Positions 2,017-23,433 of a stretch of DNA of 39,675 bases are shown here, piece by piece; the stretch's first letter is position 1, and every line of letters starts with the position of its first letter. The stretch comes from Candidatus Aenigmatarchaeota archaeon (GTDB lineage: Archaea > Aenigmatarchaeota > Aenigmatarchaeia > CG10238-14 > SCSR01): NCBI GenBank assembly GCA_039090665.1, contig JAWCSL010000007.1, positions 1 through 39,675 on the forward strand, given 5' to 3'. The notes under the pieces were generated by a model that had not been told where the DNA came from, searched no databases, and saw nothing but the letters and a program-made list of their open reading frames with translations. Made by a program: the position numbers and the translations under genes.

Positions 2017-3165
2017 ATGAGTTCTCTTCTGAGTAAGATAGAACAAAACATTAAAACCAGCTTCGAAATTTTAAGCGATTATGTTTTTTTAATAGATGAT
2101 ATTTATTATCTACCAAACCCTTCCATCAAACCACCATTAAAAAATTATAAATTCAAGTACTTACGCTCGGATCAAGATGGTGTTTATGAAGCTGAAGGTA
2201 CACCCTGGCTTTCTTACTTACATTTCAAGAATATGCTAGGCGATGAAAACGCAAAATCTTTGATTGAAAGTGTGAGTAAAAAATCTGTTGAAGATAAAGA
2301 AAGAGAAATTTGTGAATTCTTGAAGGAAAATCACATAAACTTTCAAAAGTTCTTTTCAGCAGGTAAAAAAGCTGTTGAAGAATTCAAGCCAGTGAAAAAT
2401 CTTTTCAACTTTGTTCACTCTGTCCAAACAAAACTATCTTACTATCTTGATATAAGATCTGGCACATTTGGTGAAATCAGGATCGGCAAAAGCTATTTTG
2501 ATGGGCCCCTTAAAATTTTTTGGAAAAATTTAGGAGTTTCTTCTGAACAAATTGGTGGGTCAAAGGCCTATTTCGATGAAGAAGGTACCTTGGAAAAAAT
2601 AGAGCTTGAGCTAGAACACAAAAAATCCCAACCTATGCCAAATTATCTTCAATATGTACTAGGCTTCACAGACACACCCCAAACCGATTTCCCGATGATA
2701 GATGTTAATCTCAATATATTGCCTTTAGTTTTTTCATTTGGTAAGCTTGCTGAAATTCCGAGAGGGATCGTAATACCATGTCAAAATGCGAAAAAAGATA
2801 TGATGGAAGCAATTAGAATAATGTTGAAAGTTGAAAGGGGAATTGTTGAGTATTTCGGAAATGTGGATGTAGAGGGAGCAAAGAAAATTGGAAAAGAAGT
2901 TAAAAGATTATATGAAATTTGTTTTTCTAGCCATCAAAATTTTTTGAAATACAAGGAAAGTTTTGTGAATAAAAGTTTAGATTTTTTAGAAAAGTTAAGT
3001 GTTGAAATTGGGAAAAGAAAATATCCTCTTTTCCCAGAAGAATTAACAGGAATAAAAAAATATTTAATAACTCTTCAAAACTCAACTAATTTTGAAATTA
3101 GCAAAGAATTAAGTGATAAAATAATTTATCTTATGAAGAAATATTCAGCCGAATTTCCTAGATAA
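2017..3165 (+). CDS. Hypothetical protein (382 aa)
   Basis: Long ORF with typical composition; no family recognised. Confidence 0.75.
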   Translation: MSSLLSKIEQNIKTSFEILSDYVFLIDDIYYLPNPSIKPPLKNYKFKYLRSDQDGVYEAEGTPWLSYLHFKNMLGDENAKSLIESVSKKSVEDKEREICEFLKENHINFQKFFSAGKKAVEEFKPVKNLFNFVHSVQTKLSYYLDIRSGTFGEIRIGKSYFDGPLKIFWKNLGVSSEQIGGSKAYFDEEGTLEKIELELEHKKSQPMPNYLQYVLGFTDTPQTDFPMIDVNLNILPLVFSFGKLAEIPRGIVIPCQNAKKDMMEAIRIMLKVERGIVEYFGNVDVEGAKKIGKEVKRLYEICFSSHQNFLKYKESFVNKSLDFLEKLSVEIGKRKYPLFPEELTGIKKYLITLQNSTNFEISKELSDKIIYLMKKYSAEFPR

Positions 3166-8464: not shown

Positions 8465-10870
8465 TTAATTTAGAGCTGGAATCTTAAAATCTATTAAGTC
8501 TGGGCGGTTTTTATAAACATCTGGATAAATAAGCTGTGTCTCTCTATAAACATCTATAATTAATCCAACGAACTCTGAAACTACTGAACAAGCACCAGTG
8601 AACTTTTGACCAAATCCAAAACATGCTGCTACTGCATCTAAGACCCCAGCACCCGCCGTTGCCACAGCACAAAGTGCTGCAGAAACACATTTAGCAACAT
8701 ATTCTCCTGCTTCTAAACCAACATACCAGTTAACCAAACCTGCTGTTGCATAGCAGTAATTCTTTTTGCTGTAAGATAAAGGCATGTAAGGTTCAACATA
8801 TATTGTATCTCCTTGTTGATAAATTTTAAGCTCTGAATAACATGGACTTACTAAATAAAATCTTGGATCTGGAGCAACTATACTGTTTCTCTTCAATTTA
8901 ATTGAATCTATGCCTTTGGCTTGACATGCCTCTGGTAATGGATAAGCTCTCACACAAGCTCCAAGCTGAATACAAATTGCACCATCTTGACATGATGTTT
9001 GACAATAGCCTTCTGGTGGTTTCTCTTTAGAAGGATAGCCATAGTAAGAGAAATACCTATCCCAGTAGGTTGCTCCTAGAGGAGTGTAAAGATCCTGAAT
9101 TCTAAGAATAGCATAGCCTAAAGTTCCTCTAGAAAAGATTTCTGCATCTTCTTTTAGTCTCAATCTTTTACCATTCAGTAAATTCCACAAATTTTTAGAT
9201 TCAGATGAACTTTTTATAACATCTTCCTTTAAATACCTTCTCACGATATCTTGAGTTTCATACAAGATTGTTTCTTCAGAAATGTCTTTACCTTCCATAA
9301 ACAACTCATACAATCTCTCATCGATGTTATTAACTAGTTTTTCCATTTTTGATCCTCTCTCTATGACAGTAAAAAATATACCTTCATCTGCCTCTTTTTG
9401 CAATTTCGTTATTTTAATTGAGATTAATCTCAATGCCTCATCCTCATTAGTAACTTTAACCCCTGCACGCTTAAGAAATTCTACAGCATCCTCAGGATTC
9501 TCTTCAAAGTATCTTTTCATGCTTTCACTCAGTTTTGAAAAAGAATCAGAATCCAAAACCCTATCACTCATTACTGTCTCTTCTAATCTAGCTATCTTTT
9601 CTTCAAATGGTAAGACTATTTTCTTCTTAATTCTTTCAAAAAACGGATCTTCATCAAGAATAACTTCTTTTATCCCCTTTACTCTTCCATATTCGTCTAC
9701 CTCATAAACTGGAACAAAAATATCATCTATTCTGTCTGGCCATCCATTTTCACGGGCATATTCTTCTAGTGGATTTATCACATTTTCTACTGCCTCATCA
9801 CCAAAATCTTTTGCTATTCTCCAATGTTTGAGAGAAGAATCATATTCCCATCCTTTCTTTTTCCAAAGTTCTGCAAGTTCGTCGCTCTCTTCCACTTCTT
9901 CTTTAAAATAACTGGAAATTTTATCTTTCAAATCATCCATTTTTATTGAAAATCTTCTTTTGGCTTGAGCTATCTTAGTTTTCAAATAGTTCTGAACTTT
10001 TGGTATGACAAATTTTTGCAGAATAATTTTAGTCACATCTGCCCCAATTCCAACAATTACTCCCTCCTTCAAACAATCGCCTAGAGTTTTATCTTGCATT
10101 GCCAAACATAATAGAGTATAGCCGGCTGTGACTTTTCCTATGAATTTTCCTTCTCTCACTACAAATTTTCCTGCTTTTATCACACCCCTCTTTAATTTTC
10201 CCATATTCTCTATCACATCATCTGCACCGTTTTCTAGGGCATTCCATGCTCTCTTCAATTTAGCAAAAGTTTCTGGTGAAATTGACTCTATTTTATCCCT
10301 AATTTTATTAGCAATTTTTCTTCCAACCGTTATCGTACCTTCTTTTCCAGCCTCTGCAGCAGTTTCTAGGCCAAATATATCCATACCCAAAAACACAGAG
10401 TCCAAAGTAACTGTCAACAAAAAATTAGAGCTCCATGGCAAATCCTCCGACCAGGGGATGAAGACTGAAGCTGCTGTTTCCAGAACACCTTGACCAAATT
10501 GATATGGTGGTTCTGGAGGAAAATATTCCCAATAAACTTTATAATAAGGATCATTGAATAATTGTACAGGAATTTCAAGTTCTGGCCCACCTAAACCAAT
10601 TTTTTTCTTAACCCAGTTTATTCCATTTTCTATTTCATCCTTTAGACTTGCAATTCTATTTTGTTCTAACTCAAATTTCAATGTTTTTTCTTCTCCAGTT
10701 TCACAAACATACTCCACACTTTTATAAAAATTATAAGCATTTTGTTCCGCAATTTTATCACTAGAATTGTGGATAAAAAACCACCACAAACCGAATCCTA
10801 CCAACACAGCAATTACTCCACCAACAACCAAAAATCTTAAAGTATACTCATTCAAAATTAACACCCACAA
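8465..10870 (-). CDS. Large pilin-like/membrane-anchored exported protein (about 800 aa), Cys-rich C-terminus with Gly/Ala hydrophobic hairpin
   Basis: N-terminal TM (FLVVGGVIAVLVGFGLWWFF); charged helical middle; 11 Cys in the last ~180 aa; segment SAALCAVATAGAGVLDAVAACFGFG; start uncertain (GTG 10870 or TTG 10855). Confidence 0.8.
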   Translation of the reverse strand: MWVLILNEYTLRFLVVGGVIAVLVGFGLWWFFIHNSSDKIAEQNAYNFYKSVEYVCETGEEKTLKFELEQNRIASLKDEIENGINWVKKKIGLGGPELEIPVQLFNDPYYKVYWEYFPPEPPYQFGQGVLETAASVFIPWSEDLPWSSNFLLTVTLDSVFLGMDIFGLETAAEAGKEGTITVGRKIANKIRDKIESISPETFAKLKRAWNALENGADDVIENMGKLKRGVIKAGKFVVREGKFIGKVTAGYTLLCLAMQDKTLGDCLKEGVIVGIGADVTKIILQKFVIPKVQNYLKTKIAQAKRRFSIKMDDLKDKISSYFKEEVEESDELAELWKKKGWEYDSSLKHWRIAKDFGDEAVENVINPLEEYARENGWPDRIDDIFVPVYEVDEYGRVKGIKEVILDEDPFFERIKKKIVLPFEEKIARLEETVMSDRVLDSDSFSKLSESMKRYFEENPEDAVEFLKRAGVKVTNEDEALRLISIKITKLQKEADEGIFFTVIERGSKMEKLVNNIDERLYELFMEGKDISEETILYETQDIVRRYLKEDVIKSSSESKNLWNLLNGKRLRLKEDAEIFSRGTLGYAILRIQDLYTPLGATYWDRYFSYYGYPSKEKPPEGYCQTSCQDGAICIQLGACVRAYPLPEACQAKGIDSIKLKRNSIVAPDPRFYLVSPCYSELKIYQQGDTIYVEPYMPLSYSKKNYCYATAGLVNWYVGLEAGEYVAKCVSAALCAVATAGAGVLDAVAACFGFGQKFTGACSVVSEFVGLIIDVYRETQLIYPDVYKNRPDLIDFKIPALN

Positions 10871-21635: not shown

Positions 21636-21736
21636 GCGGGAGTCGCCTAGCCTGGTCAATGGCGCAAGGTAGCTTAAGCCTTGAATCAGAGCCTTGTGGC
21701 TTAGTGCCTTCGTGGGTTCAAATCCCACCTCCCGCA
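21636..21736 (+). tRNA. tRNA-Leu(CAG) with 15-nt intron at position 32/33 (21671-21685)
   Basis: Acceptor GCGGGAG/CTCCCGC + A73; anticodon stem CAAGG/CCTTG; spliced loop TT-CAG-AG; long variable arm; GTGGG TTCAAAT CCCAC; BHB helix CAAG/CTTG with bulges GTA and AAT; no encoded CCA. Confidence 0.9.
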
Positions 21737-21746
21737 CTAGGGCTGA

Positions 21747-21799
21747 GGGATATATACATCTTTTTGAAATTTGGTAATTTTCATAAAAAATCAAATTAA
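21747..21799 (+). repeat. Left terminal inverted repeat (53 bp)
   Basis: GGGATATATACATCTTTTTGAAATTTGGTAATTTTCATAAAAAATCAAATTAA. Confidence 0.95.
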
Positions 21800-21828
21800 T
21801 TTAAATCTTTAAACTCTTTATTATTTTC

Positions 21829-22287
21829 ATGGTATATGAACTAACTATGGCTTTTGTACCAATATTAGGATTTATTTTAGGTGGTATACGCTTCATAATA
21901 TATAAGCAAATTATAAAAGAAAGAAACAAAATTCTAGAAAAAATTAAAGAAGATTATAAAAAATTTCTTAAACATCCCAAAATAACTTCCGATGAAGAAA
22001 AAAGAAATTTTATAAAAAATCTAGCTGGGTTATATAAATTTGAAATAGAATTAAAAAGAGTTGATATAAGTTTTAAAAACTTATTTTTTGGATTCATAGG
22101 ACTACTTGTCGGTATTTTTATTTTTGATGTATTTGGTGTACCATCTTTAATTGTTGTTATTATCATTTTGGAAGTTTTTGGAATTTTGTCTTTTCTTGAG
22201 TTTATGTTCCTCAACGAAACATACAACCACATTAATTTGTATGAATCAGGGAAACCACCAAAAGAATTTATTAAGAAAATTTGGTAG
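21829..22287 (+). CDS. Hypothetical membrane protein (about 3 TM), element cargo
   Basis: 152-aa ORF, hydrophobic N-terminus and C-terminal hairpin, very AT-rich. Confidence 0.7.
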   Translation: MVYELTMAFVPILGFILGGIRFIIYKQIIKERNKILEKIKEDYKKFLKHPKITSDEEKRNFIKNLAGLYKFEIELKRVDISFKNLFFGFIGLLVGIFIFDVFGVPSLIVVIIILEVFGILSFLEFMFLNETYNHINLYESGKPPKEFIKKIW

Positions 22288-22306
22288 TTTTCTTAAAAAT
22301 CAAAAC

Positions 22307-22800
22307 TTAACATTTTTCGTTTGTTTCCTCTATTAACAAAAGTTGTTGATAGTATTCTCTTGAAGAATATCGACAACATTTATACATCTCAGAAAATTTA
22401 CAAAATTTCCCAAAGTAAGTTGCACATTCGGCTTTTATTCGAATATAAGCATTTTTCACACTGTCATTAAAAGTTGGTTTAAATTTGAAGGTAGACAATT
22501 GACCAGCATCAACTCGGTAGACAATACTTCTACTATCTTCAACTTTTCCAAAGTCATCTATGAATTTTATTTTATCTGAAGTAAAGGTTACATTGAAAAA
22601 TGCTGAAATTTTTCCACCATTATTTAACTGATATAAGTTTCTAATTTATCATTTAAAATGGTAGGGCAAACTTTATCTGCAGTGCTTGTTTGAATTACCC
22701 AAACCATTTCTGGTAAAGAAATATAACCATAAATTATTGTACCGATTGCTATCAGAATTGCTAAATAAGTATAGAATCGTTGTGGTGAAATTCCTTTCAT
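22307..22800 (-). pseudogene. Frameshifted class III signal-peptide (pilin-like) surface protein, element cargo
   Basis: ATG 22800: MKG/ISPQRFYTYLAILIAIGTIIYGY...LETYIS* (stop 22624-22626); shifted frame continues QLNNGGKISAFFNVTF...KAECATYFGKFC...KCCRY...EKC* to 22307; one missing base within 22627-22645. Confidence 0.7.
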
Positions 22801-22817
22801 AAGATAGAGTTTTCTAG

Positions 22818-23018
22818 TTAAAAATATTTATATTTATCAGCTTCGAAGCTATAAGATGGTTAATTAAACATGATTCTCATTTTATTTCACAACTACTGGT
22901 TCAATCAAAGAACTATATTGTTTATGATAAAGAAGAAGGACAAATTGAAAATATAGGTTTTGTAGAGGGTAAACAATTAGATTGCTCTTGCATAGCAAAT
23001 ATAACGATAAAATCTTAA
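22818..23018 (+). pseudogene. Start-less 3' gene fragment whose stop lies in the right TIR
   Basis: About 66 open codons with no ATG: ...SFEAIRWLIKHDSHFISQLLVQSKNYIVYDKEEGQIENIGFVEGKQLDCSCIANITIKS*. Confidence 0.4.
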
Positions 23019-23067
23019 TTTGATTTTTTATGAAAATTACCAAATTTCAAAAAGATGTATATATCCC
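23015..23067 (-). repeat. Right terminal inverted repeat (53 bp)
   Basis: TTAATTTGATTTTTTATGAAAATTACCAAATTTCAAAAAGATGTATATATCCC, exact reverse complement of 21747-21799. Confidence 0.95.
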
Positions 23068-23314
23068 CACATCTTTATAGTTAAAATTCTAGTACCAACA
23101 AATGTTGGCTCAGCCAATATTCGCCAAAAAATGAAGTAGACTAGATTGCAGATAGTTTTAAATATCTTTTTTCCTAACTTCAATTTAGGTGTAAGAGATG
23201 GGCGATAGTTTTTGCATCAACTAACTTTTACCTTGAGTTTTTGGATGATTTTCTGAAACTAAACAAAATTTATTTTAAAACACTAAATTCTTTGAATAAC
23301 AATATAAAAATTAA

Positions 23315-23418
23315 GCTCGGGTGGCCGAATCTGGTTAGGCAGTCGGCTGCAGTTGGTCTTTTGATAAAAGATGAGAAGTTGAGACCGACGCATGTGGGTT
23401 CAAATCCCGCCCCGAGCT
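23315..23418 (+). tRNA. tRNA-Cys(GCA) with 31-nt canonical 37/38 intron (23353-23383)
   Basis: Acceptor GCTCGGG/CCCGAGC + U73; anticodon stem GTCGG/CCGAC, CT-GCA-G then intron then A; T arm GTGGG TTCAAAT CCCGC. Confidence 0.9.
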
Positions 23419-23433
23419 CTTCAAAGTGATAAA

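Follow-up and report, generated by a model that had tools for sequence, protein, structure and literature searches.

The stretch of DNA analysed here, called the window, covers 39,675 nucleotides of a hot-spring Candidatus Aenigmatarchaeota archaeon (assembly GCA_039090665.1, contig JAWCSL010000007.1). Within it a segment of 1,321 bp, at positions 21747–23067, is enclosed by perfect terminal inverted repeats (TIRs) next to the 3′ end of a tRNA-Leu gene. What kind of mobile element this segment is, and how it came to this place, are the questions that the locus raises. The CRISPR adaptation machinery is presumed to descend from casposons. These have been described, in the portions of the literature available to us, as large elements which always carry Cas1 and a polymerase, single ends (solo-TIRs) being the only known remnants. 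A reading made earlier from the sequence alone (the sequence-only reading) had taken the segment for a mini-casposon or an internally deleted casposon. We conclude, with a probability of roughly 0.87, that it is a non-autonomous miniature derivative of a casposon of the family-2 type. The casposon kinship is borne out by the ends, the geometry of insertion and an empty site; the element may have moved as a miniature or have shrunk in place, since no casposase and only one copy were found in the genome.

Ends and insertion site of the element

The repeat search gave exact 53-bp inverted repeats at 21747–21799 (plus strand, starting GGGATATATACATC) and 23015–23067 (minus strand), which are 100% complementary (53/53), with 1215 nt between the arms. 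Both terminate in TATCCC-3′. In the window the outer 28 nt are found two times; in 100 shuffles that preserved dinucleotides they gave no match at all. The perfect repeats read from the sequence are thus confirmed, and within the 620,606-bp genome (15 contigs, 90.6% complete) the TIR is found only at these two sites.

ARAGORN at its default settings reports no tRNA in the window. Once introns are allowed, it recovers tRNA-Leu(cag) at 21636–21737 with a 15-nt intron; Rfam places this tRNA-Leu(CAG) on the plus strand at 21636–21736 with 28.9 bits, the gathering score being 29. The 3′ end of the gene, ...CCTCCCGCA, includes CGCA at 21733–21736 with the discriminator A at 21736, and the TIR begins 10 nt later. 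The tRNA is real and intron-bearing, and the spacing noted before is correct. It had also been stated that the element has no mobility gene, and in ORFs (open reading frames), Pfam matches and tblastn no Cas1, polymerase, nuclease or other mobility gene was found within 21747–23067; tblastn detected no remnant of Cas1 or of a B-family polymerase (PolB) either. Among the traits of a casposon, the element shows the C-run at the TIR end and the insertion at the CGCA of a tRNA 3′ end, and lacks a Cas1 and a PolB of its own.

In the parts of the published work available to us, casposons of Methanosarcina mazei adjoin tRNA-Leu, the last 4 bp of which overlap a target-site duplication (TSD) of 14 bp whose first bases are a conserved CGCA, and the strand that is transferred has C at its end (PMC6977970, PMC4779613). 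The TIR start of MetMaz-C1 is printed as GGGATATAG, and in a longer form as GGGATATAGGTAAC... (PMC10359463). The first eight bases of the window end, GGGATATAT, and the first nine of the commonest end in its wider family, GGGATATAGATATC, are those of MetMaz-C1. As in the M. mazei family-2 casposons, the element follows a tRNA-Leu 3′ end with CGCA, its TIR starts GGGATATA(G) and has a 3′ C, and its geometry is like that of a 14-bp TSD overlapping the tRNA by 4 bp. The window is arranged as in M. mazei: the tRNA species, the CGCA motif, the 10-nt spacing and the terminal bases are alike. Unlike family 2, the element is without casposase, polymerase and nuclease and resides in a DPANN archaeon; unlike MetMaz-C1, it has a TIR of 53 bp, not 31 bp, which is different beyond the first 8–9 nt.

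The casposon of Aciduliprofundum boonei offers a second comparison. Its 15-bp TSD overlaps tRNA-Pro by 5 bp (PMC5137440), so that AciBoo-C1 also starts 10 bp past the tRNA, and only the 3′-terminal TCCCC of its end is needed for integration (PMC6614799). AciBoo-C1 shares the 10-bp spacing and the 3′ C-run, and differs in its tRNA-Pro target, in the terminal TCCCC as against ATCCC, and in being autonomous. The casposon traits on which the sequence-only reading relied (TIRs, tRNA-Leu or tRNA-Pro 3′ ends, duplications of 14–15 bp overlapping the tRNA) match these sources (PMC6977970, PMC5137440), and the alignment with published TIRs that it proposed gave the likenesses just described.

A family of related ends

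With the element as query against 117 genomes of the order, TIR-like sequences were found in nine genomes (G114, G104, G075, G096, G112, G100, G024, G105 and, at a second site, G002). Several are no more than about 150 nt away from a contig end, as is usual for repeats in assemblies. In six cases (G114, G075, G096, G100 and G105) the TIR-like sequence starts 9–10 nt past an apparent tRNA 3′ end. ARAGORN names three of these adjoining tRNAs, Lys(ctt), Ile(gat) and Glu(ctc); overall, the tRNAs identified beside such ends are those for Lys, Ile, Glu, Leu and Arg.

A search pattern derived from these ends, GGGATA-N14-15-AAATTTGG-N4-5-TTCATAAAAAAT, matched four contigs among the species-representative genomes (two Candidatus Aenigmatarchaeota, two uncultured archaeon) and, in metagenomes, 36 loci on 31 distinct contigs, many of which are short. 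There are 34 distinct ends, 33 of them with flank. CA stands exactly 10 nt before the end in 21 of the 33, and TG at −4/−3, the reverse complement of a CA abutting the far end, in 13. Five ends carry both signs and four carry neither; three of the latter have the tRNA end 9, 11 or 12 nt away, and the remaining one is a far end that is off by a single base. These sequence rules were used for the counts in place of intron-allowing ARAGORN, which named a tRNA within 130 nt at 8/33. An nhmmer profile built from 32 distinct ends gives 43.7 bits for the window ends; for elements that have Cas1 and PolB, the ends reach 52–57 bits. The element therefore has ends homologous to those of autonomous elements and no transposase inside, as is required of a non-autonomous one.

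Two loci of this survey deserve description in their own right. In G114, contigs C38 (L038) and C24 (L039) converge on the same ~127 nt, contained in the last 130 nt of each, which comprise the last ~19 nt of tRNA-Lys, 10 nt and then the element end. The whole tRNA-Lys is present only in C24; C38 has a tRNA-end fragment after another T-arm-like piece, and a functional target seems to have been duplicated. Contig C1 of G002 (L037) has at about 3040–3090 a degenerate single end (22 bits). This end lies ~10 nt past GGCA, has a 20-nt palindrome behind it and resembles a solo-TIR; no counterpart was found in the genome of the window.

Enzymes of the relatives and of the host

Five larger two-ended elements (L063, L072, L074, L064 and that of G096) encode Cas1, with 199–217 bits to Pfam Cas_Cas1. 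By tblastn, Cas1 is present on 10 of the 31 metagenome contigs and on one of the four genome contigs, many of the remaining contigs being only 1–3 kb long. In a comparison with structure chains only, in which PDB chains served as the reference casposase set, the Cas1 proteins of G096 and L072 match 6OPM with E values of 2.2e-136 and 3.4e-125 over residues 1–388 and 9–401, and both alignments continue past the Cas1 core into the C-terminal part. With the same two proteins, the best chain of a CRISPR Cas1 gives 5e-28 and 3e-35. 6OPM is the casposase of M. mazei (PMC6977970). The casposases of the family are 57–88% identical among themselves.

L072, L063, L056 and L080 encode a polymerase-like protein of 858–866 residues. 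The 864-residue protein has no Pfam match at E ≤ 0.001, only sub-threshold ones up to E 10, and none in PHROGs, NCBIfam or the PDB sequences. By eye it displays DTE, NLSFD, DFLSMYPT, KILANATSYG, FCDTDS and KRY, which we take to be polymerase-B motifs, and its nearest Atlas clusters (score 0.99) have DNA_pol_B or DNA_pol_B_2 on 14–41% of their members. Because of these motifs and neighbours, it is called a B-family polymerase. The polymerase of AciBoo-C1 belongs to the ‘PolB_CDTDS’ group (PMC7544198), a further point of likeness. L072 also encodes an HNH nuclease (a weak Pfam match) and a methyltransferase, and helix-turn-helix (HTH) proteins complete the gene set. The relatives are thus like M. 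mazei family 2 in that their casposase aligns with 6OPM over the full length and in that they encode a PolB and an HNH nuclease; the elements bearing Cas1 and PolB are casposons. Full elements with cas1, polB and the same ends, for which a search had been suggested, are found in L072 and L063, both with perfect 14-bp TSDs.

These enzymes bear on another explanation, that the segment is a miniature inverted-repeat transposable element (MITE) of an ordinary insertion sequence (IS), mobilised by a DDE transposase. Such MITEs are alike in logic, being short TIR-bounded shells which depend on a transposase made elsewhere, and the small size, the TIRs and the lack of a transposase would suit them. 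However, where the contig is long enough, the enzyme inside the repeats is Cas1 (11 of 35 contigs), a 14-bp TSD starting in the last 4 nt of a tRNA is the signature of a casposase, and the genome has no copy elsewhere. Unlike IS MITEs, the element goes with an enzyme of the Cas1 family and not a DDE enzyme, with tRNA-end targeting and with a 14-bp TSD, and it is single-copy and gene-bearing. An IS origin is extremely improbable.

Whether the host itself could supply the casposase is a separate question. The only Cas1 of the genome belongs to CRISPR: it is 26–28% identical to the casposases and lies on contig C1 in a type I CRISPR-Cas locus (81552–90756) with cas6, cas7, cas5, cas3, cas4, cas1 and an array of 30-nt repeats. 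The L072 polymerase as tblastn query found nothing in the window or in the genome. No further copy with a TSD of its own was found; there is one copy in the genome and one at the same locus in G002. Since the genome is 90.6% complete, the absence of a casposase is not proven. The element presumably cannot move as a transposon at present, unless a helper lies in the unassembled tenth or comes from outside.

Two-ended elements of different sizes

By the pattern, the nhmmer profile and, for G096, reading of the sequence, nine distinct two-ended elements were found. L072 (9,731 bp) and L063 (9,176 bp) have 14-bp flanks that agree at 14/14. The flanks of L074 (8306–13153, 4,848 bp) agree at 7/14, those of the element on contig C32 of G096 (L047; 1574–6112, 4,539 bp) at 6/14 ungapped and, by reading, 11/14 with one indel, and those of L064 (the same as L067; 128–2628, 2,501 bp) at 11/14. 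Among the smaller ones, L052 (the same as L079; 2,013 bp) has 2/14 and a degenerate far end, the element of the window and of G002 (1,321 bp) has 4/14, L061 (9116–10045, 930 bp) has 13/14, and L085 (~670 bp) has 4/14 and a degenerate far end. Four of the nine, namely the window element, L061, L052 and L085, are without Cas1. The sole gene of L061 encodes a 191-residue homologue of GCD14/TrmI-like tRNA methyltransferases.

The series of sizes, 9.7, 9.2, 4.8, 4.5, 2.5, 2.0, 1.3, 0.93 and ~0.67 kb, is what might be left if a full-length casposon inserted and then shrank in place, never moving as a miniature; such a course would differ in history only. The polymerase remnants of relatives also speak for it, a piece of 47 residues next to the end in L073/L084, whose TIR is the closest to that of the window among the matches listed, and fragments in L081 and L060, as do the single copy and the lack of a casposase in the genome. 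On the other side, tblastn found no Cas1 or PolB remnant in the window element, both passenger genes are intact in G002, and the window TIRs agree at 53/53 whereas those of full elements with perfect TSDs agree at 46–47/50. L061, of 930 bp, without Cas1 and with different cargo, has a 13/14 TSD, and very small elements therefore carry fresh-looking duplications. Shrinkage in place is a possible history but a doubtful one.

L074, the G096 element and L064 have the same ends and a casposase like the HTH-bearing M. mazei enzyme, without a polymerase. The proposed ‘family 5’ (Salgado et al. 2022, as far as that source was available) likewise comes from hot springs and is polymerase-less, but its casposases lack the HTH and are near type I-A Cas1, whereas the relatives found here are near the HTH-bearing enzyme. 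The three appear to be derivatives without a polymerase from within a lineage like family 2, and to be separate from the proposed family 5. The window element, unlike family 5, is without even Cas1.

On the other side of the casposon-targeted tRNA, G096 contig C32 has a tyrosine integrase gene (9133–10356), and the surroundings of this tRNA may be used by integrating elements of two kinds. The window segment might itself be the remnant of a tyrosine-integrase island in a tRNA gene; besides the integrase gene of G096, its place at a tRNA 3′ end and a right junction which repeats the CCC(G/A)CA of the tRNA end would agree with that. However, its ends are inverted and not direct, the duplicated part of the tRNA is 4–6 nt, and no integrase was seen inside or beside the element, so that an island is most unlikely.

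Inside the window element, at 22277–22321 on the plus strand, stands a third, incomplete copy of the inner TIR (profile positions ~21–47), not listed in the sequence-only reading. It has the orientation of the left TIR, is 76–80% identical to it, and overlaps the stop codon of the first passenger gene, ORF152. With the nhmmer profile, similar partial copies of the inner end, in direct orientation, are seen in L063 (1346–1373), L059 (6323–6349) and L054 (894–911), where they sit 476–1,226 bp inward of the tRNA-proximal end. The internal copy seems to be a feature of the family.

Target-site copies and the empty site

A 14-bp duplication starting at CGCA would place its left copy at 21733–21746 and its right copy at 23068–23081, both on the plus strand. 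The left position reads CGCA followed by CTAGGGCTGA, and the right copy is CACATCTTTATAGT; CGCACTAGGGCTGA and CACATCTTTATAGT agree at 4 of 14 positions. The lack of a clean TSD, which the sequence-only reading had conceded, is thus real. That reading had also named an empty-site allele as a check, and one was found in the congener G004, which lacks the element and whose flanks are 93% and 90% identical to those of the window. Immediately after the tRNA-Leu of G004 comes TCTCTATAGTTAAAA; a DJ-1/PfpI gene and a PALP-family (cysteine-synthase-like) gene are next. The right copy of the window corresponds to CGCATCTCTATAGT of this empty site at 12/14, and the last 10 nt of the left copy are unlike both. 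With context, the right junction CCCACATCTTTATAGTTAAAA agrees with CCCGCATCTCTATAGTTAAAA of G004 at 19 of 21 positions, a score reached by 0 of 500 shuffles. Because of this match, the right flank is regarded as a copy of the tRNA end plus the native downstream sequence, and it appears to fit the prediction of a 14-bp target duplication starting at CGCA. The empty-site joint in the genome of the window would read tRNA-Leu joined to TCTTTATAG. A search of 60 relatives showed that the layout of tRNA-Leu ... tRNA-Cys–cysS is kept in the genus, while the intervening content varies.

Hybrid flanks are present in L074 too, with GGCACTATACTACA as the tRNA-side copy and GGCACTTCTATTAG as the far-side copy. 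At another tRNA, L072 has the latter as its perfect TSD, and the missing partner GGCACTATACTACA is present at a far end in L056. Two histories fit mismatched copies. In one, copies of the element would recombine homologously with each other or with incoming DNA; the G000/G002 tract described below shows that such recombination happens. In the other, by analogy with M. mazei, a casposon would bring along one of its old target copies when it reaches a new site. An in vivo study of M. mazei reported that a tLEU2 site had been replaced by the former TSD of the casposon, and proposed a circular intermediate; according to its authors, the replacement may be an artefact of the polymerase chain reaction (PMC10359463, available to us in part). 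The mismatched duplication of the window resembles the hybrid flanks reported there.

Passenger genes

ORF152 (21829–22287, plus strand) is intact and encodes a small predicted membrane protein of 152 residues. A homologue with 42% identity (E 8e-35) lies in L078 at the same position and in the same orientation just inside a related end. Ordinary-looking genes begin there ~1 kb further inward, and the nhmmer profile and a further search found no second end of L078. ORF152 has nothing above the Pfam cut-off (DUF456, E 0.024) and one weak PHROG match (E 0.0066, function unknown), and a search of 5.8 billion proteins matched only ORF152 itself. Its Atlas matches are all below 0.9; a ‘superinfection exclusion protein A’ cluster at 0.87 is a lead only.

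The second gene (22307–22800, minus strand) encodes a Cys-rich protein of 164 residues and is broken by a one-base frameshift near 22625–22627. It differs by this one base from the intact copy of G002, and the extra A is also present in one contig of run X8. The cargo had been read as decayed; with ORF152 intact and a single-base frameshift in a gene that is whole in G002, this is not borne out. ORF164 has three homologues with 48–68% identity and 59 invariant columns, including six cysteines. Its model (pLDDT 85) consists of an N-terminal helix and a beta-sandwich. No Pfam match was found, nor any Foldseek match at E ≤ 0.001; at Foldseek rank 2, among generic Ig-like folds, stands the archaeal type IV pilus subunit 8fk7 (E 2.6e-3, TMq 0.36). 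That ORF164 might be a pilin-like surface protein is a guess from the model.

Exchange with the sister species and other populations

G002 is the representative of another species of the genus. It has the same element, on a contig which starts inside the left TIR, with two differences in 1,306 nt, and the next 247 nt of flank show none. The neighbouring genes are far less similar: cysS is 88.8% identical, the genes beyond cysS 86.0%, and the upstream genes 84.6%. The near-identical flank spans 23068–23331, between neighbours which are 85–89% identical, and ends inside the tRNA-Cys(GCA) gene (23315–23419, plus strand, with a 31-nt intron by intron-allowing ARAGORN), which precedes cysS. This pattern is that of recent homologous recombination which exchanged the entire stretch between the two tRNA genes, and it is not that of transposition; tRNA-Cys is the likely right-hand anchor of the tract.

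Both flanking tRNA genes have introns, of 15 nt in tRNA-Leu and 31 nt in tRNA-Cys; the tRNA-Leu homologue of G007, read from the sequence, has a different intron sequence in the anticodon region. Between the element and tRNA-Cys lies a conserved block (23149–23237) with a TTTAAATAT box and then a nine-codon ORF, MGDSFCIN-stop (23198–23224), that has one Cys codon. The block is kept in G004, G006 and G007. It stands upstream of the PALP-family (cysteine-synthase-like) gene in G004 and, by reading, in G007, and upstream of tRNA-Cys and cysS in the window and in G006. The mini-ORF could be a cysteine-sensing leader peptide.

Contigs from four further hot-spring runs, of four studies, have the interior of the element at 100% identity and are broken at the TIRs; short contigs crossing the inner TIR borders have the reference orientation. 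One joint, from 21737 to 22804, has a side of 21 nt on the shared tRNA end and very high depth; it is taken to come from other organisms.

The orientation bears on whether the segment is an invertible one, a phase-variation switch in which a site-specific recombinase acts on the TIRs, the alternative that the sequence-only reading tied to reads in both orientations. Perfect inverted repeats around two oppositely oriented small genes for surface or membrane proteins would be in keeping with a switch. However, no strand-change joint is present in the contigs of the four runs, where rare forms can stay hidden, no recombinase gene was seen in the neighbouring ORFs and Pfam matches, and repeats of this design enclose, elsewhere, Cas1/PolB elements that have 14-bp TSDs. 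A switch is thus barely credible.

Discussion

The results suggest the following course for the 1,321-bp element. A casposase would have joined the 3′-OH of each ...TATCCC end to the target strands, 14 bp apart, from the CGCA of tRNA-Leu. The element would have been miniature already and served in trans, as laboratory mini-casposons are, or it would have shrunk afterwards. It would keep in cis what a casposase needs, the 53-bp TIRs and the canonical position 10 bp past the tRNA, while the casposase (Cas1 with a C-terminal HTH), PolB and the nucleases would have been lost and two small passenger genes would be there instead. Further transposition would need a casposase supplied in trans. The element now appears to be a stranded two-gene cassette between tRNA genes, and its latest spread may have been by homologous recombination anchored in these genes.

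Several observations weigh against a miniature casposon. The element is single-copy, and no casposase or casposon polymerase was found in a genome that is 90.6% complete. The likeness to the published casposon end is confined to the terminal 8–9 nt, and the flanks agree at 4/14 only. Two of the four two-ended elements without Cas1, L052 and L085, have degenerate far ends and no supported TSD. The 247 nt of non-element flank at 100% identity mean that the only traceable transfer was by homologous recombination and not by transposition. Finally, no empty-site, circle or inversion joint was found in the contigs of the four runs, in which uncovered parts carry no weight.

Artificial counterparts exist. 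In M. mazei, the casposase encoded on the chromosome mobilised a mini-casposon in vivo (PMC10359463), and such constructs, TIR-flanked resistance cassettes used in vitro and in M. mazei in vivo (PMC5137440, PMC10359463), are like the window element, in the parts of these papers available, in having foreign cargo and no internal casposase and in being moved from outside. They differ in being laboratory-built, whereas the window element occurs naturally, its genes are archaeal, and the genome provides no helper for it. Among natural remnants, the solo-TIRs of M. mazei (Krupovic et al. 2016; PMC4779613, available in part) are also casposase-less and lie beside CGCA, but each is a single end, whereas the window has both ends perfect and enclosing genes. 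Tandem and inactivated casposon copies of M. mazei are already known from the same work (PMC4779613). A natural two-ended casposon without casposase is to be expected in principle. None is described in the literature searched, as far as it reaches in the parts accessible to us, though the supplementary M. mazei lists could hold defective ones; nor did the accessible parts describe a casposon family of this kind for DPANN or Aenigmarchaeota, or name a casposon together with a MITE.

A wider proposal, which we advance only tentatively and consider rather less likely than not to hold, is that casposons have a natural population of casposase-less satellites of 0.67–2 kb, moved in trans and carrying one previous target copy to the next site. 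If this is true, satellites would carry varied cargo (a tRNA methyltransferase-like gene as well as genes for membrane and secreted proteins), the hybrid flanks seen in the window element and in L074 would be natural footprints of a circular, target-carrying intermediate, and casposition would be nearer to site-specific recombination at CGCA than to classical cut-and-paste.

The two-ended shell without enzymes, and the series from 9.7 to less than 1 kb, point to the same parasite-of-a-parasite dynamics in casposons as in other transposons. An enzyme-less shell would also bring the casposon nearer to a ‘repeat – short insert – repeat’ arrangement, which has been invoked to explain how the CRISPR array arose, and the hybrid target sites may serve as field evidence on how casposons excise and re-insert. 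The tract that is 99.85–100% identical between species which are 85–89% identical elsewhere suggests a second route of spread: since it has a conserved tRNA gene on either side, the element can pass from species to species by homologous recombination, and no transposase is needed.

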